A stretch of DNA of 52,717 nt. Source: Candidatus Aenigmatarchaeota archaeon. GTDB taxonomy: Archaea > Aenigmatarchaeota > Aenigmatarchaeia > JACPZZ01. Below the pieces are notes generated by a model. It was not told the DNA's origin. It was given only the letters and a program-made list of their open reading frames with translations, and ran no database searches. Positions 964-29,368 of this stretch are shown here, piece by piece (position 1 is the first letter of the stretch; the number at the start of each line of letters is the position of its first letter). The position numbers were made by a program, and so were the translations under genes. The stretch covers positions 1 to 52,717 of the forward strand of contig JACPZZ010000023.1 of the NCBI GenBank assembly GCA_016195275.1, written 5' to 3'.

Positions 964-3900
964 TCAGCGTGGAGTGTACTCGTTTTTCTTGCCCGAAACC
1001 TTTTCGATTAATTCCTTTATCTTACCGTACAGTTCCCGGATAAGGTCTTCTATCTTTTTCAGCCTCTGCTTAACCCTGCCAGCAGGCCCGGCCTGTTCAG
1101 GTATTGTGTAGCCCTTGGAAGGAGAATAACCGGGTTCCGGCAGGAACATGTAAACCAGCAGCCCGACAAGGATTGCGCCCGCAACCACGCCCGCAACAGT
1201 CAGCACGTTTCCTAGCCTGCTGGAACCCTGCCGGGTTTCAACTGTCCTTATCAGGGTCTCGGCCGCGTCAATCAGGGATTTCGCCTGGAGCGCCAACTCG
1301 TTTGCCTTTACGTAATCGCCCTTTGAAATGTAATTCTCGGCCTGCGAAAGCAGCGAGACAGCCGCGTTTATCTTTTCCTCGGCAAGTTTTAATTCCGTAT
1401 TGTTGGGCGAAGCAAACATGCTGTTGTTTAACCTGCCTGCCAGCGCCTGCAGCGAATTTGTATAATTCAGCAGCGTCGCGTTTATTTCCAGTTTCGTCGC
1501 CTCTGTCGGCAATACCACAATGTAGAAATATTCTATTGTCAATTCTTCGTCGGAAGAAACGGAATATCTTGCGGTGTAATTCTTTACAACAACATTTGAC
1601 GGAACGCTGAACTTGGCGCTGAAATCAAAAGCCTGCCCCGCTATTATCGTGGCGTTTGCGGGCGTCACACTCCACCAGGAATTGTCAAGGTCTTTTACCG
1701 CAAGCGACATCTTGCCGTCGAAAGAGCCGCTGTTGCGTACGGTCACTGTTGTTGTGTTCGAGTTTCCTTGCAGCATATAAATCGATTTGGTATAGGCCGG
1801 AATCGTCGCGTTGTAGCCTGTAACATCAAACGTTTTTGTGGTAGAAGCTCCGGTGTAAGTGTCCTTTGTAGCAAGCGCAGCCACCTTGAACGTTCCTATT
1901 ACGCCAGCCGCAGGCGTGTACGAATCGGAGCATTTGCCCGACGTCGTGGTGCAGGACGAATCCCAGACTTTGGCGCCTTTCGGGTCGGTTATGTTAAATT
2001 TCACCGTAACTCCGCCGATATTGGAACCGCCGCTCGTTGCTGTAAAGTTGATTGTGACAGGCGACGCTTTGAAATATGTTTGTTTGTCCGTTGTTATTGC
2101 CAGGGAAAGCGCGCTGGATCCCCCGCCGCCAATTACTCCGGTATTGCCTGACGATATTGCTACGCCTTTGTACGCGTATATCAATGTGTCGTTTAACACC
2201 CACACACCAGGCGGGCCTAGCCCCTTTATCGTTGCAGTGCACGTGGCGTTCGAGCCTATCGTCACTTTCCATGTGGCCGAGCTGTTTGTGTAACTGCGGA
2301 ATCCGGAAAGGTTTCCGATATTGTAATTCCCTGTATAGCCGCTGGCCACCCCTGTGCATGAGCCCGACAACGACAGTTCAAGCGTGACGTTAAACAGCGC
2401 CCCGCCGCCCACGTTGGTGACATTGACAAAAACGCTCCTGTCACCTGTGTTGAAGAATTCGTCGTTGTCGTGCGTGCCGTTGTAGACGTCTATAACAAGG
2501 GCGCTGCTGTTCACGTAGAGATAGTCGAGCCTTGCGGTTCCGCTGTTCCTTGTGCCTGATCCCTTGTCAACAACAGTCGCATAGACAGAGTAATTGCCGC
2601 CTGCTATGGTCGACGGTATAGATATATTAACCACATAGCTGTTTTCCGCTGGCACGGCCTGCATAACCCTGGTGATATTGACGTCTGTGAAATTGTGCGT
2701 GTAGTTGGACCCCTCGTAGGGGAATTCGTTTTGCAACCACACAGTGAAATTAGTCGCATTGAGCCCGCTTACAAAGCTGTTGTTCTGGTACGTCACGTTT
2801 ACAGTAACATTGACAAACACGGGATCGCTGCTCGCAAGGTGTGTGTAATTCACGGTCTTGTTTATCGGGTTTATCCACACACCCTTGTCTGTCTGGTTCG
2901 CTATATTATGTACTATAACGTTCAGTTTATCGGTAAGGTTCAGCGTGATGTTAATCAGGAATTCCGAATACGGGTGCGCGTTGCTTGCGTTCAGCTTTAT
3001 CCAGCCGTAATAGACCGATTCTCCGGCCGACGTTGTCGATGTTGTAACGTTTAATCTTATTCTAAGCAGTGTTGAATTCTTTGTCGTGACAGGGCTTTCA
3101 AACGAATAATTGAACCCGGCCGAATTGGTGGACGAATCGTTCAGCCAGCTTGAGTTCGTGTGATTTAGCGTGAGCGCAAAACTTCCGGTGTTGTTTACGG
3201 TAAGAAGGTAGTCCAGGAATTTGCTGGTTCCGACATTATCCGCAATGTATATAAGTATCTTTGAGAGGCTGTTGTTAACCGTAAGCGTGGGCGCCGTGAC
3301 ATTGATCCCGAACGGCACGATCATGTAATGGCCTGTGTCTGCGCGGAACGTAATAGTTCCGTTGTAAATTCCGTCCGTCGACAAAGACGGGACGCTTACG
3401 TTGAAGTCTATGGTAGCGTTGCTTTGTGTACTATTAAAAACATACTGCCTTGTGTTATTTCCGAACGAGCTGCTCAGCCAGCTGTTGCCAAGGTTTATTT
3501 TTATCGTGAGGTTATAGTAAACCAGCGCACCCCCTTTCACGGAAACATACCAGCTTTTATTGAACTCGTTTATGTTTACGACAGATCTTGAAAATATCCT
3601 GTTGAAACCAAGGCCAGTGACATTGAACATGTCTGTGCGTTTGCTCTGGTTCGATACGGAAACGTCGGACGAGTTGTACACGGTAAGGTTGAAGTCGGCG
3701 GATATGTTGTTCCATTCAAGCGTTGCATCGATAGAAACGTAATTGCTGGGTATAAGTATCGTGATGTTCGTGGAGTTTTGCATATTCACATAGCGTTCAA
3801 ACTTTGAAATGGTTTCCGTTTCCGTAACGGTTGTGAAGTTTATGCGGTTCGTGTTATTCAGCACGAATATTATGCTCGTGGGCAGTGCGGCGTCAGGCGA

Positions 3901-5600: not shown

Positions 5601-7400
5601 TCAGGCATAGCATTTTATTTTTCTGCGGTTTACAACAGCCCTCACAAGGGAAGAGCCCACATCGGAATCTTTTGAAACCTTGATCGCATCCTTGGCCCCG
5701 ACCGTAGCCGAGAACAAAAACTCGTCTTCAACGTAAACAGACACCACCCTGCCTGATATTCTGGCATCAAAGCCGATATTTACGTAAGCGCCGGATTCGG
5801 AGATGGTGTGCGACACCAATTTACCCAGGCTCTTAGCAAGAGGTTCTACATCTATGGATATGCCGAGTTTTCTTTCCAGCTCGTTCACAGTCTTGCCTTC
5901 CTTGCCTATTACGCGCGCGATCAGTTCGTTATCAACGCGCACAACCGCTTTGTTGTCGCTTATTATTTCAACATCCGCCTGCGGATCGAATTTTCTTATT
6001 TCCTGCAATATGCGCTCGCCTGCAAGCTTTCTAACAGGATGTTCTGTTTTTGCATCGGCCACAGGAACAACCACATTCTCCTCGCCGTACGTGTATATTT
6101 CGTATTCGCATTTGCCGGTTTCAAAATCGCGCACTTCTATCAGCGGCCTCGCAAGGTCGGCTTCGGTCATGCCCGACGGAACACGAACAATGAGGCCAAG
6201 TTCATAAACCTTCTGTACGGAGCCGCCCTTGAGGAAGATTATAGTGTCCAACACGCTCGTTATCATGCCCATTTCTATCCTGCCGATAAACCTTTGTATG
6301 GAATCTATTGCAGCCGAGGCATGGACAACGCCTACCATGCCGACGCCGGCCATGCGCATGTCAGCGAAAACCTCAAAATCTTTTGTCTTGCGCACTTCGT
6401 CGTAAACAGTGTAATCCGGCCTGACCAGAAGCAATATGTCAGCGGTTTTTTCTATGCTGCCGTCCAGCGGGCCGTACTGTGTTATCTCCGGCGGAACTTG
6501 CAAGTCCCTCGGATTTTCTATAGTCTTGACTATTTTATCCAGGGAAAGGTAAAATTCCGCCACGGATGCGGCGAATGTCGACTTGCCGGAGCCCGGAGGC
6601 CCGCAGATTATAATTCCCTCGGCCCGCTGTTTCAGGCGGTCCATTAGTTTGTCGGAAAGCTTGTAATCGGCTAGAACCAGTTTTGTTATCGGGCGCACTG
6701 CGGTTAACTCAAGCCCGTCGCTGAACGGCTTCCTGGCAATCGCAATGCGGTATTTGTCAAATTGTATAACAGTGGCGCCATGCGACCCCATTTCAATAAA
6801 CGCGTTTTTTTCGTGCCTGACCCTGTCCATTATTTCTTTTATCAGTGTTTCTATCTCCTCTTCTTTCATAGCCGTGTCGCGTATGCGGGCAAGTTTGACC
6901 TCGCCCGGCTTGCCTTTCTTGGCCATCGGTAAAACATCAACTTTCAGGTGGACTGAAGACGTGTTTTCATCGAAAAAATCCTCGAGTTTTATGGGCAACG
7001 TAGAACGCGTCTGCTGTATGTAAAGCACAGAAACCCCCTCCGCCTCTGCGACCAGGGCCTGCACATAGTCCGCTGTGATCAGTGTCGCTGCGTTCTCGCG
7101 TGCGATATCGCGTATTAGCGCGTCTAACCGCCCCTTTTTAGCCAGCATTATCTCTTCCATTGTAGGCCTTCGCCCAGTGAAAATAAGTTTTACCTTCTTA
7201 CCCAGCTCACCTAAAGCGCGGACTTTTTTTAACTCTTCCAGGCCCTGGAATCCGATGTCCCTTCCGCGCGAGGCCTGGGCCTGCAGCTCATCGATAACAG
7301 TCACAGGCACTATAATTTCGCCTTCGACTTTATCGCTTTCAACAAGCCCGGTTAACTTTCCATTGATCAGAACAGAGGTATCTGGCACCCATTTCTTCAT
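5601..7400 (-). CDS. PIN-domain / PilT-like ATPase / KH-domain protein (COG1855-type)
   Basis: 599 aa. N-terminal PIN signature VPDTSVLI, Walker A GPPGSGKST, and a C-terminal KH GxxG motif (VIGKEGKTVNELERKLG). Confidence 0.8.
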   Translation of the reverse strand: MKKWVPDTSVLINGKLTGLVESDKVEGEIIVPVTVIDELQAQASRGRDIGFQGLEELKKVRALGELGKKVKLIFTGRRPTMEEIMLAKKGRLDALIRDIARENAATLITADYVQALVAEAEGVSVLYIQQTRSTLPIKLEDFFDENTSSVHLKVDVLPMAKKGKPGEVKLARIRDTAMKEEEIETLIKEIMDRVRHEKNAFIEMGSHGATVIQFDKYRIAIARKPFSDGLELTAVRPITKLVLADYKLSDKLMDRLKQRAEGIIICGPPGSGKSTFAASVAEFYLSLDKIVKTIENPRDLQVPPEITQYGPLDGSIEKTADILLLVRPDYTVYDEVRKTKDFEVFADMRMAGVGMVGVVHASAAIDSIQRFIGRIEMGMITSVLDTIIFLKGGSVQKVYELGLIVRVPSGMTEADLARPLIEVRDFETGKCEYEIYTYGEENVVVPVADAKTEHPVRKLAGERILQEIRKFDPQADVEIISDNKAVVRVDNELIARVIGKEGKTVNELERKLGISIDVEPLAKSLGKLVSHTISESGAYVNIGFDARISGRVVSVYVEDEFLFSATVGAKDAIKVSKDSDVGSSLVRAVVNRRKIKCYA

Positions 7401-12126: not shown

Positions 12127-12387
12127 AAATTGTAATTTCCTCTAAACGTATTTTAAGCGGCAAGTTATGAAATAATAAAGAATGCGGACACCATACTGGT
12201 CGTGAATTTTGATAAGAAGGGCATCAAGAACTACATAGGCGGCAATACTTTCCTTGAGATGGGATTCGCCCATGTTCTAAACAAGAAAATATTCATATGG
12301 AACGGTGTACCGTCCATGCCTTATACAGATGAGATCATAGCCACCCAGCCTTTTGTAATGAAAGAATATATGAATGGATTTTCCTAA
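12123..12387 (+). pseudogene. possible frameshifted remnant of a nucleoside 2-deoxyribosyltransferase-like gene
   Basis: An ATG overlapping the ileS stop gives MKIVISSKRILSGKL-stop. A +1 frame open from 12157 gives AASYEIIKNADTILVVNFDKKGIKNYIGGNTFLEMGFAHVLNKKIFIW, which resembles the C-terminal core of that family. The total length is shorter than typical members. Confidence 0.35.
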
Positions 12388-12404
12388 TGAATTAGGTAGC
12401 AATC

Positions 12405-17991: not shown

Positions 17992-18648
17992 TCACCTTGA
18001 TTTGCATATAATAAATGCGTGATCGGCCTCAAACGGGTCAAGCGTAACGTAATCCAGTATTTCAAGCTTGCCCTTAATAGCGTCGACCGATTCCTGGAAA
18101 ATTTTTTTCGGATCCTTTGTAACGTCTATGCTCCTTGATTTTATAGCTATCATTGCAAAGCCGCCTTTCCTTAGGAACGCGTCAGCATTTCGCAGCAGTA
18201 TTGCAACCTGTTCCGGATCAGCAACATCCTCATAGACTATATCAACCTTCTCGACCCATGAATAATCCTCCGGCTTGCGCGCATCAGCCAGTATGGAAAC
18301 TATGTTGCCTCGCTGTTCGCATGCACGCACAAGGTCGCTTACGGCACGCGAAGAAAATTCCACACCATAGATTATGCCGTCGCGCCCTATGATATCTGAG
18401 AAATAAGAGGCCGTCTGCCCCTGGGCAATTCCCAGATACAAAATTTTTGAACCTTTTTTAATCGGGAAGTTCTTTACACCCCTAAATATGGCAGCCGCGG
18501 GTTTTGATTTTTCCGGGTTCCATACCCTGTATTCGGAACCATCGACTGGTATTATCTTTTCAGAATACGACCTGCCCGTTACAAGGTTCTTCGTGCAGAG
18601 TTGGCCGCCAATCAAAAAAACCCCGTCAAAAATTTCCTTTAATTCCAT
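17992..18648 (-). CDS. flpA: fibrillarin, C/D-box sRNP 2-prime-O-methyltransferase
   Basis: 218 aa. YRVWNP, ILYLGIAQGQTASYFSDI (SAM site), DVADPEQ and an archaeal-size protein. It lies directly downstream of nop5. Confidence 0.9.
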   Translation of the reverse strand: MELKEIFDGVFLIGGQLCTKNLVTGRSYSEKIIPVDGSEYRVWNPEKSKPAAAIFRGVKNFPIKKGSKILYLGIAQGQTASYFSDIIGRDGIIYGVEFSSRAVSDLVRACEQRGNIVSILADARKPEDYSWVEKVDIVYEDVADPEQVAILLRNADAFLRKGGFAMIAIKSRSIDVTKDPKKIFQESVDAIKGKLEILDYVTLDPFEADHAFIICKSR

Positions 18649-18656
18649 GTTACCAG

Positions 18657-19739
18657 CTACTTTTCCCTGAAATGTTCAAGCGCATTTTTGACAAGCTTGT
18701 CGAGCTCTTCTTTCATTTGATCGCTCATGTCCCGGCCCGAATAAAAATCAATCCTTGCGGCAAGCGTCGCTTTAGATGCCACGATGCGCGCTATTTTTCC
18801 CCGTGTGGGTATCGGCGCGGATATCACAGCCGGATGGTAAAATATTATGCCGTGTTTCGGCGCCTTTCCCTGTTTTTTCAGAAACCTGAACAATGCCTTT
18901 TCCGCGCCCAGTAATTGTATTGTCGAAGACGGTAATTTTGAAAGTTTGTCAAGCCCCCCTGCCAGCGAAACCAGTCTGAACGCAAGCAATGGTCCTGCTA
19001 CAGCGGATGTGTTGGGCATTATCTGCCTGCCCAGAATTTCAAGATAACTTTCGAGACCCCTTCTTTCGGCGTACATGCCTTTCAGCATCTTTCCCGTCTG
19101 TTTCACAGTTTCAAGGTCTTTTTCGTCAAATTCCATGCCAGCAGTTTCAATGTCAAATTTCCTTCCATCGCGCTCAAAGCTTCCGCGCAGGGTCTTTTCA
19201 GCCACGAAATCTGCGAATTTTTCATTATCCTTTATCAGGCCGTTTATCTCCGGAAAATAAAGGCCGTACCATTCTCTTAGATGTTCCGAAAGCGTGTTTA
19301 TGTTTTTGTTTAACTCATCAATCATCCCGACAACACGCATTCCTACTTTGTCCTTGTTGACGTTCCTGAGTTCGGACTTGGAGCTCTCTGTTCCTACGGC
19401 CGAAAGGATCTTGTTCAATTCTGATTGGGAGCCTGTCCATTTTTCCCTGATAGCGATTTCCCGGAAAACCGATTTGGCATTATTTTCCCCGGTATTTTCA
19501 GGGTCTTTTTTAAGGTAAAATTCGCCGGTCTTTGGGCAGGCGCTGTAAAATTCCTTGAAGCCCCCTTTAGCAAGCCTTCTGAGCAATACAACTTCTTCGT
19601 CCAAAAACGAATTTTTTACAGCGTTTAATTTAGCTGATATCTGCTTGGCGTCCTTTTTGAACAGCTCTTTGTCCGCAAGTTTTCCGTTCTCGTCGAACGC
19701 GAAAATGCCCACAACTGTATAGCCCAGATACGCTTTCAT
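18657..19739 (-). CDS. nop5: Nop56/58 (Nop5) C/D-box sRNP core protein
   Basis: 360 aa. Nop-domain signature LLGAEKALFRFLKKQGKAPKHGIIFYHP, a coiled-coil middle region, and the conserved archaeal nop5-flpA operon order. Confidence 0.9.
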   Translation of the reverse strand: MKAYLGYTVVGIFAFDENGKLADKELFKKDAKQISAKLNAVKNSFLDEEVVLLRRLAKGGFKEFYSACPKTGEFYLKKDPENTGENNAKSVFREIAIREKWTGSQSELNKILSAVGTESSKSELRNVNKDKVGMRVVGMIDELNKNINTLSEHLREWYGLYFPEINGLIKDNEKFADFVAEKTLRGSFERDGRKFDIETAGMEFDEKDLETVKQTGKMLKGMYAERRGLESYLEILGRQIMPNTSAVAGPLLAFRLVSLAGGLDKLSKLPSSTIQLLGAEKALFRFLKKQGKAPKHGIIFYHPAVISAPIPTRGKIARIVASKATLAARIDFYSGRDMSDQMKEELDKLVKNALEHFREK

Positions 19740-19779: not shown

Positions 19780-19934
19780 TGCGGGGGGCCGGATTTGAAC
19801 CGACGAACCCACTAAGGGATCAGATCTTGAGTCTGACGCCTTTGATCATTGGTTGTTCAGACAGACGCATACCATGTATGCGTCAGTTTGCTCCACCTCA
19901 TCACTCAAGTTTGACCGGACTTGGCTACCCCCGC
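19780..19934 (-). tRNA. tRNA-Leu(CAA), class II, with a 69-nt intron in the D-loop
   Basis: Hand fold: GCGGGGG-TA-GCC-AAGTCCGGTCAAA[intron]GGC-G-TCAGA-CTCAAGA-TCTGA, variable arm TCCCTTAGTGGGTTC, T arm GTCGG-TTCAAAT-CCGGC, then CCCCCGC-A. The intron is about 19841-19909. The boundary is ambiguous by up to 5 nt because TCAAA is repeated at both junctions. Confidence 0.75.
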
Positions 19935-20581: not shown

Positions 20582-20672
20582 GCGGCCATGGTCTAGCGGT
20601 AAGACACGAAAGCTTTAGCGGCTGTGTAAGCTTCCCAAGCTCGTTACCCGGGTCCGAATCCCGGTGGCCGCA
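20582..20672 (+). tRNA. tRNA-Gly(CCC) with a 20-nt intron inside the anticodon stem (position 29/30)
   Basis: GCGGCCA-TG-GTCT-AGCGGTA-AGAC-A-CGA[aagctttagcggctgtgtaa]GC-TTCCCAA-GCTCG-TTAC-CCGGG-TCCGAAT-CCCGG-TGGCCGC-A. Removing 20610-20629 restores a perfect CGAGC/GCTCG stem. The T-loop reads UCCGAAU (C at position 55), which is unusual. Confidence 0.7.
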
Positions 20673-21613
20673 TGATCATCAACCCAGGAATTTACAACCT
20701 CTTTTATGCCTTTCCTGTAACCTACAGTGGGACTGTAACCCAAAACCTGTTTTGCCTTTGAGATATCGTAATACCTGTCGCTTGATATGACCTTGATGTA
20801 GCGTTCAAGGACCTGGGGATCTTTCCCCTGTAATTTTTTGATGATATAATTTATTTTCGCGCCCCACACCGCAATTCTTTTGCTGACGTGTTCGTTTGGA
20901 GGAGCAACGCCAAGAAATCCAGAAACCAGCGCAAACGCCTCTTTCTGCGTTATCACTTCAGGCCCGCCTATGTTGAATGCGTCGTTAAACGGTTTTTTTA
21001 CAGCAGCCAGATAGAAAGCCTGCGCGCAATCCTTTGCATGAACAAAATGCAGCCTGTTGTTGCCGTCTCCGATAATCTTCATCCTGCCTGATCTGATCAG
21101 GCTCGTTATGCTCTTGAAGCCGGTCTCAAACCCCGCGCCGTAAATCACTGTGGGGCGCAGGAAAGTGTAGCCTATTCCGGATTTTTTAATTTCGTCTTCG
21201 GATTTGATCTTGCTTAAGCCGTAAGCGTCCTTGGCATTGCGGCCCAAATCTTCTGACACAGGAAGTTTCGGATTAAACCCGTAAACAGCCACAGAACTCG
21301 CATAAACGAATTTTACCGCGTCAGCTTCGACGGCAGCATCAAGGACGTTTTTCGTCCCTTCGTAATTTATCCTCATCATGTATTTCGGTGATTTTCTGAA
21401 ATCCAGCGTCGCTGCCAGATGGACCACCGTTTCGACGCCTTTCAGGGCTTTCGGCAAAGAACCCTTGTCTAGGATATCTGCCTGTACGACTTCGGAATTG
21501 CGCAATCTTTGCATGCCGGTGCGGGACATTAACCTGGTCTTAAGGCCTTTTGATGAAAACAGCCGCGAAACGTAAGAGCCGAGATTGCCATCCGCGCCGG
21601 TTATCAGTATCAT
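20615..21613 (-). CDS. NAD-dependent epimerase/dehydratase family protein (SDR)
   Basis: 332 aa. ITGADGNLGSYV Rossmann motif and YGLSKIKSE (YxxxK). The last ~19 codons run antisense through tRNA-Gly. Confidence 0.8.
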   Translation of the reverse strand: MILITGADGNLGSYVSRLFSSKGLKTRLMSRTGMQRLRNSEVVQADILDKGSLPKALKGVETVVHLAATLDFRKSPKYMMRINYEGTKNVLDAAVEADAVKFVYASSVAVYGFNPKLPVSEDLGRNAKDAYGLSKIKSEDEIKKSGIGYTFLRPTVIYGAGFETGFKSITSLIRSGRMKIIGDGNNRLHFVHAKDCAQAFYLAAVKKPFNDAFNIGGPEVITQKEAFALVSGFLGVAPPNEHVSKRIAVWGAKINYIIKKLQGKDPQVLERYIKVISSDRYYDISKAKQVLGYSPTVGYRKGIKEVVNSWVDDHAATGIRTRVTSLGSLHSR

Positions 21614-29255: not shown

Positions 29256-29368
29256 TGCCTGGACCGAGAATTGAACTCGGGACCTTTCGATACCACTTCA
29301 CAGCCGCTAAGGCTCGTCACTCATAATGAACTTATGAGTCGAACGCTCTACCGCTGAGCCACCCAGGC
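29256..29368 (-). tRNA. tRNA with CAU anticodon (elongator Met or Ile2) with 41-nt canonical intron
   Basis: GCCTGGG-TG-GCTC-AGCGGTA-GAGC-G-TTCGA-CTCATA[intron]A-TCGAA-AGGTC-CCGAG-TTCAATT-CTCGG-TCCAGGC-A. The intron segment TTATGAG pairs with the anticodon loop CTCATAA. The anticodon stem lacks the three G-C pairs of initiators. Confidence 0.85.

Follow-up and report, generated by a model that had tools for sequence, protein, structure and literature searches.

Archaeal tRNAs are known to contain the 2'-O-methylated wobble nucleotides Cm34 and Um34 (PMC7668247). In Pyrococcus, four C/D sRNAs are directed at position 34 of exactly four tRNAs, namely Leu(CAA), Leu(UAA), Met and Trp, and only the guide for tRNA-Trp is intronic (review, PMC7994747). 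This pre-tRNA-Trp intron (Haloferax volcanii; Pyrococcus sR50; PMC4090602, PMC7994747) occupies the canonical site 37/38 and forms a full C/D RNA, in which two box pairs accompany two guides, one for C34 and one for U39. A review of 2014 called it a "unique example" of an intron encoding the modification device for its own tRNA, and action of the excised Haloferax intron in trans has been reported (PMC4090602). The elongator tRNA-Met of Nanoarchaeum equitans, a DPANN archaeon, carries at the canonical position a 66-nt intron with one box D and an imperfect box C, which yields a stable RNA and was proposed to be a methylation guide, no target register being named in that paper (Randau 2012, PMC3491384). 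Half-size C/D RNAs have been crystallized together with L7Ae, Nop5, fibrillarin and target RNA (PMC6239191). Finally, Thermoproteales and ARMAN are known for non-canonical and multiple introns with the BHB splice motif and for intron "transposition", with no guide function assigned to these introns (PMC4090602, PMC3239211).

Here, we analyzed the genome of an uncultivated Aenigmatarchaeota (DPANN) archaeon, judged from its close relatives to come from groundwater (assembly of 1.07 Mb, 83% complete, labelled G000), starting from the contig of 52,717 nucleotides that we refer to as the window. Its tRNA-Leu(CAA) gene is interrupted by a D-loop intron, which probably represents a minimal, single-guide module of the C'/D' type targeting C34 of its own tRNA, with methylation as the predicted outcome. 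By analogy, this module is a pared-down and oddly placed form of the device described for tRNA-Trp and suggested for one tRNA-Met. With the pre-tRNA-Trp intron it shares a C/D-type guide directed at the anticodon loop of its own tRNA, the wobble register and a competition between guide fold and splice fold; it differs from that intron in having one kink-turn and one guide and in lying in the D-loop instead of at 37/38. The N. equitans intron likewise comes from a DPANN archaeon and from a tRNA other than Trp, although the closer counterpart to it is the tRNA-Met gene of the present genome (29256-29368), since the Leu(CAA) intron lies in the D-loop. The trans-acting Pyrococcus sRNAs (Clouet d'Orval 2001, as summarised in PMC7994747) have the same predicted target, C34 of tRNA-Leu(CAA), and serve the same set of tRNAs; according to this summary they are free-standing genes with two box pairs that act in trans, whereas here the guide is found inside the gene of its target. 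The combination of one kink-turn with one guide resembles the synthetic half-mers of the Pyrococcus and Sulfolobus RNP crystals, which are laboratory constructs bound by L7Ae, Nop5 and fibrillarin together with target RNA. The site away from 37/38, the relaxed BHB motif and the sharing of modules among tRNAs are, in turn, features in common with the introns of Thermoproteales and ARMAN.

The tRNA-Leu(CAA) gene, its intron and its neighbourhood

The initial annotation had recognized a tRNA-Leu(CAA) whose cloverleaf closes only if 69 nt are taken out of the D-loop, a non-canonical intron site. Both statements were confirmed, as ARAGORN folds the resulting 86-mer into a clean class II tRNA-Leu with the anticodon CAA; acceptor stem and D-stem have 7 and 3 bp, respectively, the variable arm is long and the T-arm normal. 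The gene and the elements involved in its splicing are arranged as follows:

19780..19934, minus strand: tRNA-Leu(CAA) gene, 155 nt including the intron, CCA not encoded
19911..19934, minus strand: 5' exon with acceptor strand, 5' strand of the D-stem and D-loop up to GGUCAA
19842..19910, minus strand: D-loop intron of 69 nt as placed by BHB geometry, at about position 21/22, the cut sliding within the A-run
19780..19841, minus strand: 3' exon with 3' strand of the D-stem, anticodon arm, long variable arm, T-arm and acceptor strand
19913..19916, minus strand: exon strand of the BHB central helix (GGUC), followed by the AAA bulge with the 5' splice site
19844..19847, minus strand: intron strand of the BHB central helix (GAUC), followed by the AAA bulge with the 3' splice site
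18657..19739, minus strand: nop5 (PF01798, E=4.8e-52), separated from the upstream tRNA gene by 40 nt
17992..18648, minus strand: fibrillarin gene flpA (PF01269, E=3.5e-80)

Unspliced, the gene received no ARAGORN call and no Rfam tRNA match at the gathering score; a permissive threshold returned only an 18-bit partial match to the Rfam tRNA model. The anticodon arm CUCAAGA occurs in tRNA context a single time in the assembly, at this locus. Therefore, the gene must be a working one from which the intron is excised. Standard tRNA finders overlook the split gene, and consequently such genomes appear to have no tRNA-Leu(CAA). Genome-wide, only 20 tRNA matches reached the Rfam gathering score, and many true tRNAs of this assembly (Leu(CAA), Leu(UAA), Trp and Lys) are missed or found in part because their introns are non-canonical or multiple. 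ARAGORN also mislabels several of the intron-bearing tRNA genes, for example as SeC, Pyl or Phe.

The junctions are formed by the repeat GGUCAAA/GAUCAAA, which is the BHB motif itself. Here, the exon bases G19-C22 (GGUC) pair with the intron bases G88-C91 (GAUC), and each strand continues into a 3-nt AAA bulge, so that the archaeal arrangement is present, in which a 4-bp helix lies between two opposed 3-nt bulges that contain the splice sites. The exon-side helix is limited to 2 bp (C17C18/G95G96), and no intron-side helix abuts the bulges, which makes this a relaxed motif and not a strict hBHBh' motif. The exact splice position is ambiguous within the TCAAA repeat. A cut after the second bulge base joins GGUCAA to AGGCG and thereby gives the sequence of an intron-less tRNA-Leu(CAA) from another family (L006 of genome G037). 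Thus, the intron length of 69 nt given initially stands, and its exact place is shifted by the BHB geometry to one base 5' of the earlier cut. An equivalent of the central helix with 3-4 bp was found in all orthologues of the gene (GACU, GACA; GGUU in G006), and the genome encodes one splicing endonuclease (EndA).

The tRNA gene had been described as lying directly upstream of nop5-flpA with a gap of 41 nt. The gap measures 40 nt, and the adjacency is kept in relatives: the order of a 156-aa ORF, tRNA-Leu(CAA), nop5 and flpA is retained in all six relatives from the same genus. No T-run follows the tRNA gene, and co-transcription with nop5 is therefore possible. In L006, the intron-less tRNA-Leu(CAA) (1484-1569) is found about 1.2 kb from a fibrillarin gene (2740-3063), which is located on the opposite strand and directed towards the tRNA; judging from this arrangement, the tRNA-Leu/flpA neighbourhood may predate the guide intron. 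Altogether, genes for L7Ae (C25:759-1034), Nop5, fibrillarin and the splicing endonuclease EndA (C15:65959-66231) are all present in the genome. The window also contains a tRNA of 91 nt (20582-20672, plus strand), which bears an internal insertion, lies antisense to the 3' end of an epimerase gene (20615-21613, minus strand), and was called Leu(tag) by ARAGORN.

Predicted guide and kink-turn of the D-loop intron

Near its 5' end, the intron carries an element antisense to the anticodon loop, followed by the two strands of a predicted kink-turn:

19903..19909, minus strand: guide CUUGAGU, seven Watson-Crick pairs with tRNA nt 31-37, invariant in eight orthologues
19898..19901, minus strand: D'-like box AUGA (xxGA), non-bulged kink-turn strand, its GA abutting the stem
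19893..19897, minus strand: 5' strand of the canonical kink-turn stem, GGUGG
19864..19884, minus strand: perfect 9-bp hairpin GACGCAUAC-AUG-GUAUGCGUC, one of the copies of a hairpin repeat that recurs across the genome, inserted in the loop that caps the kink-turn stem
19851..19855, minus strand: 3' strand of the canonical kink-turn stem, CAACC
19843..19850, minus strand: C'-like box AAUGAUCA, bulged kink-turn strand with the 3-nt bulge AAU followed by GA
19826..19832, minus strand: target, tRNA nt 31-37 (ACUCAAG); predicted methylated base C34 at 19829, by the N+5 count from the D'-like box

The complementarity of CUUGAG to nt 32-37 of the own anticodon loop had been noticed before; it is real and reaches 7 bp if the pair of U with A31 is counted. 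In C/D guides, methylation falls on the base opposite guide nucleotide 5, counted upstream from box D or D'. Counted from AUGA, the register runs over G (1), U (2, paired with A31), G (3, with C32), A (4, with U33) and G (5, with C34). Hence, the intron carries a guide complementary to the anticodon loop of its host tRNA with N+5 at C34, and its duplex of 7 bp compares with about 10-12 nt in complete C/D sRNAs. The D-loop intron is located about 80 nt upstream of its target and holds a single guide and a single kink-turn.

The strand order of D'-like box, hairpin and C'-like box corresponds to that of the internal C'/D' motif known from C/D RNAs of archaea, with D' upstream, C' downstream and the pattern xxGA ... 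NRUGA in all cases. Bulge and GA of the Leu(CAA) module together read RUGA, with which the box C consensus begins. All eight Leu(CAA) orthologues as well as four other tRNAs show the kink-turn signature at the sequence level, consisting of a Watson-Crick stem, a 3-nt bulge followed by GA, and an opposite GA abutting the stem; the -1b:-1n pair is C-G in the Leu(CAA), Met and Trp modules. In G000 the boxes deviate from the consensus (AUGA versus CUGA, AAUGAUCA versus RUGAUGA), and the 4b.4n position is C.A.

The initial annotation had proposed to fold the pre-tRNA. Its minimum-free-energy structure includes the 7-bp guide:anticodon helix; the fold with guide helix and stem has -58.5 kcal/mol, and the BHB fold, at -51.5 kcal/mol, is less stable by 7 kcal/mol. 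The excised intron folds in silico with the guide single-stranded. The kink-turn is rivalled by the BHB helix and, in G000, by a shifted UGAU/AUCA Watson-Crick helix. The GA of the BHB intron strand is the same GA as that of the kink-turn, G88A89 being two of the four bases of the BHB helix. Since this dinucleotide is common to both structures, guide fold and splice fold are mutually exclusive.

Comparison of eight orthologues, from seven genomes of one Aenigmatarchaeota genus (G000-G006) and one metagenome contig (L133), revealed which parts of the intron are maintained. The order of parts is the same in 8/8, namely CUUGAGUG, a 4-nt box ending in GA, a stem, a variable interior, the complement of the stem, a bulge and GA. 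The guide CUUGAG(U) and the 2-nt spacer between it and the box show identical spacing throughout. Intron length ranges from 38 to about 142 nt and the interior of the module from 3 to 70 nt; minimal introns of 38-40 nt are those of G001, G004, G006 and L133. Variants of the D'-like box are AUGA, AGGA and CAGA, with invariant GA and AU, AG or CA in the first two positions. The bulge is AAU or UAU and precedes GA in all eight, with 4-5 nt from GA to the 3' splice site. Six versions of the stem were observed (GGU/ACC, GGUU/AACC, GGCGU/ACGCC, GGCGA/UCGCC, GUUUGC/GCAAAC and GUUUGCU/AGCAAAC), with concerted changes in the two strands at stem positions 2-4; as far as the sequences tell, this variation could derive from swapping of hairpins instead of compensation of point mutations. 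Guide and target never vary, and covariation can therefore not be used to test their pairing. The G002 orthologue (L008 1365-1630, plus strand) has an extra insertion of 42 nt, GGAACC-AGAAGCAUAUC-UGC-UGAUAUGCUUCAG-UCGGUUCGA, which separates the 5' splice site from the guide and resembles either a hairpin-repeat element or a nested intron.

These data argue for a box layout different from the one proposed initially, which assigned GUGAUGA as box C, followed by 11 nt, a CUGA, a perfect 7-bp hairpin and a second CUGA. All of these motifs are present, with the two CUGA at 19883-19886 and 19857-19860, and the hairpin, fully extended, has the 9-bp stem listed above. This arrangement could be read as a full C/D sRNA, with GUGAUGA as box C, an 11-nt D' guide, the first CUGA as D', the second as D and the hairpin in place of C', and the intron aligns weakly to Rfam sR5 (13.4 bits, E=3.5, gathering score 40). 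We consider this extremely improbable, as it is contradicted by the comparative data: none of the four minimal introns contains the CUGA boxes, the 11-nt spacer or the hairpin. In other genomes the boxes are mutated, the first CUGA to CUGG in G002 and G005 and the second to CUGC in G003, while GUGAUGA reads UGAGGA in G001 and UGCAGA in G004, its final GA alone being invariant. Furthermore, the first 3-5 nt of the supposed 11-nt guide form part of the covarying stem, and neither the 11-nt nor the 12-nt spacer has a genomic target beyond chance (20 sites versus 17 expected with <=1 mismatch). A terminal pair of box C (RUGAUGA) and box D (CUGA) with a terminal stem, conserved among the orthologues, was not found.

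In the minimal single-guide module, the last 4 nt of GUGAUGA are the D'-like box, whose GA belongs to the non-bulged strand. We rejected GUGAUGA as the bulged strand, since its first GA is lost in G004, the flanking stem UUGA/UCAA is unconserved and the bulge would have 2 nt. Sequence comparison marks the hairpin and both CUGA motifs as a hairpin repeat that was inserted later into the loop capping the kink-turn stem, outside the conserved device; copies of the hairpin were found in other tRNA introns of G000 (C27:8734, C16:17829, C25:11066 and C2:17629). The initial annotation had found no convincing C' box or terminal stem. This holds for the terminal stem, none being conserved, and fails for the C' box, for which AAUGAUCA at the 3' end of the intron is the candidate. 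The broader proposal of an intron-borne C/D-type guide against the own anticodon loop is thus supported in its antisense and position-34 design and not in its box layout.

The same design in other tRNAs and its distribution

Introns of the same design, with the register on position 34, were identified in tRNA-Met(CAU), tRNA-Trp(CCA), tRNA-Leu(UAA) and tRNA-Lys(UUU) of G000 and in their orthologues:

Window 29256-29368, minus strand: tRNA-Met(CAU) with a 41-nt anticodon-loop intron, UUAUGAG-UG-ACGA-GCC-UUAGC-GGC-UGU-GA; guide UUAUGAG at 29320-29326, spacer UG, kink-turn from ACGA to GA at 29298-29317, N+5 at C34
G000 C22:14062-14248 (= L041:23-209), plus strand: tRNA-Trp(CCA), UGGAG-CG-AAGA-GGC-GAAA-GCC-GAU-GA
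G000 C27:8513-8775 (= L042:44-306), plus strand: tRNA-Leu(UAA), CUUAAG-UG-CUGA-UAGG...UCUG-CUC-GAUGA
G000 C1, about 6093-6378, plus strand: tRNA-Lys(UUU), UAAAAG-AG-CUGA-GACCGUUC...GGGCGGUU-UAU-GA

The tRNA-Met module is kept by the orthologues in G003 and G004. A longer stem returned for it by the automatic stem picker was spurious, as it extends into the exon, and the GCC/GGC stem inside the intron was used instead. The tRNA-Trp gene has two introns, and the guide module (the part from AAGA onwards being the kink-turn) lies in the one of the anticodon loop; the second, of about 32 nt, is located at the junction of acceptor stem and position 8 and has a GTTG repeat at each end. In tRNA-Lys, the anticodon-loop intron of about 210 nt contains hairpin repeats, and its guide module is registered on U34. 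The tRNA-Leu(UAA) gene seems to contain three insertions, one carrying a canonical CUGA/GAUGA guide module in the anticodon loop, one in the variable arm and one in the T-loop, the last being a copy of the GACGCAUAC hairpin repeat. Orthologous modules keep the design with other stems; for example, tRNA-Leu(UAA) of G004 has a canonical K-loop, CUGA-UUAAAAA-GAUGA, with 7 nt between the boxes. Together with tRNA-Leu(CAA), the Met, Trp and Leu(UAA) genes represent the same four tRNAs as the Pyrococcus set of position-34 C/D guides, and Lys(UUU) is additional.

Further tRNA genes came up as candidates. A tRNA in G000 C9 (about 12150-12400, minus strand; L043) has a 34-nt insertion between T-stem and T-loop with the kink-turn-like sequence CCGA-AGUG...CACU-GCC-GA; as a guide module this T-loop intron (C9, about 12311) was rejected, because its "guide" is merely the T-stem strand. 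The only SpoU-type methyltransferase ORF of this 83%-complete genome (C9:11809-12135) adjoins this tRNA. A tRNA-Arg(GCG) at C8:17977 was also discarded as a combination of kink-turn and antisense, its match being just the anticodon stem.

The D-loop form was then searched for with a strict pattern, by which diverged forms could be missed. Among the 371 genomes of the class, the pattern gave 4 matches outside the genus, all of them chance matches outside tRNAs and apparently protein-coding. Among 185,579 species genomes, true matches were restricted to 5 MAGs of Aenigmatarchaeota, which are the same as G001 and G003-G006; the others lie mostly in bacterial records and were read as chance, and one match in Methanothrix that we inspected is not a tRNA. 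A scan of metagenomes yielded one further orthologue, L133. The D-loop form was thus found only in one genus, as judged with this strict pattern in the genomes and metagenomes searched.

The intron might also be an ordinary non-canonical BHB intron, with GA motifs and anticodon-loop complementarity that are incidental or relics of intron origin. The genome is indeed rich in multi-intron tRNAs and in hairpin repeats nested within introns, and loose genome-wide scans for kink-turn and cis-antisense motifs returned 436 and 201 matches, almost all of them chance when tRNA context was left unrestricted. Nevertheless, we regard such an origin as improbable. Eight orthologues share an invariant guide and an exact kink-turn geometry while the remaining intron is replaced, the design recurs in four other tRNAs, and the full descriptor of guide and kink-turn arose in only 20 of 300,000 shuffles of the Leu(CAA) intron. 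In addition, the BHB of a D-loop intron does not need complementarity to the anticodon loop, which is therefore not explained by splicing.

Possible mode of action and biological meaning

For the preferred reading of the intron as a guide module for C34, we propose the following course of events. L7Ae would bind the predicted kink-turn and recruit Nop5-fibrillarin. The guide would pair with nt 31-37, either in the same precursor or, after excision, in another tRNA-Leu(CAA) molecule, and fibrillarin would then 2'-O-methylate the wobble base C34, which lies opposite guide nucleotide 5 as counted upstream from the box. The RNP could work on the precursor, from which it would have to depart before splicing, or it could assemble on the excised intron and work in trans. 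As guide fold and splice fold exclude each other, the splicing endonuclease would be able to cut only once the RNA has refolded. Natural archaeal C/D RNAs carry two kink-turns, and half-size C/D RNAs work poorly in some reconstituted systems. To the best of our knowledge, no natural half-size guide has been shown to be active.

Kink-turn and antisense element could also be real and serve a role other than methylation. They might form an L7Ae-dependent folding or quality-control checkpoint, in which the BHB is masked, the anticodon loop is held and splicing is timed, or they might stabilize the precursor. This would fit the bases shared by the kink-turn GA and the BHB central helix, as well as the short guide and the single kink-turn, which is atypical for an active C/D RNP. 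However, the distance from guide to box is the same in five tRNAs and places position 34 at N+5, a register that masking does not need, and the set of tRNAs matches the known C/D-guided Nm34 set. Such a role therefore appears unlikely to us.

A more far-reaching version of the methylation reading is that, in this lineage, the whole set of guides for wobble 2'-O-methylation was relocated, as natural half-size modules with a single kink-turn, to introns of the tRNAs they target, one of them to a D-loop intron far from its target, and that the shared GA acts as a switch permitting splicing only when the guide RNP has done its work and departed. We put this forward as a tentative idea, which may well prove wrong. 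If true, half-mer C/D RNPs would be active in nature, and conserved tRNA introns would be kept for the modification guides they carry.

Altogether, the D-loop position, the overlap of kink-turn and BHB and the set of five tRNAs in one genome are the new points of this analysis. A single genome has the predicted device in at least five tRNAs, with one copy at a non-canonical D-loop site and with a single kink-turn. If these modules are active, they would provide a selective reason for the persistence of tRNA introns in very small genomes, a half-size C/D RNP would suffice in nature, and one shared dinucleotide could order modification and splicing.
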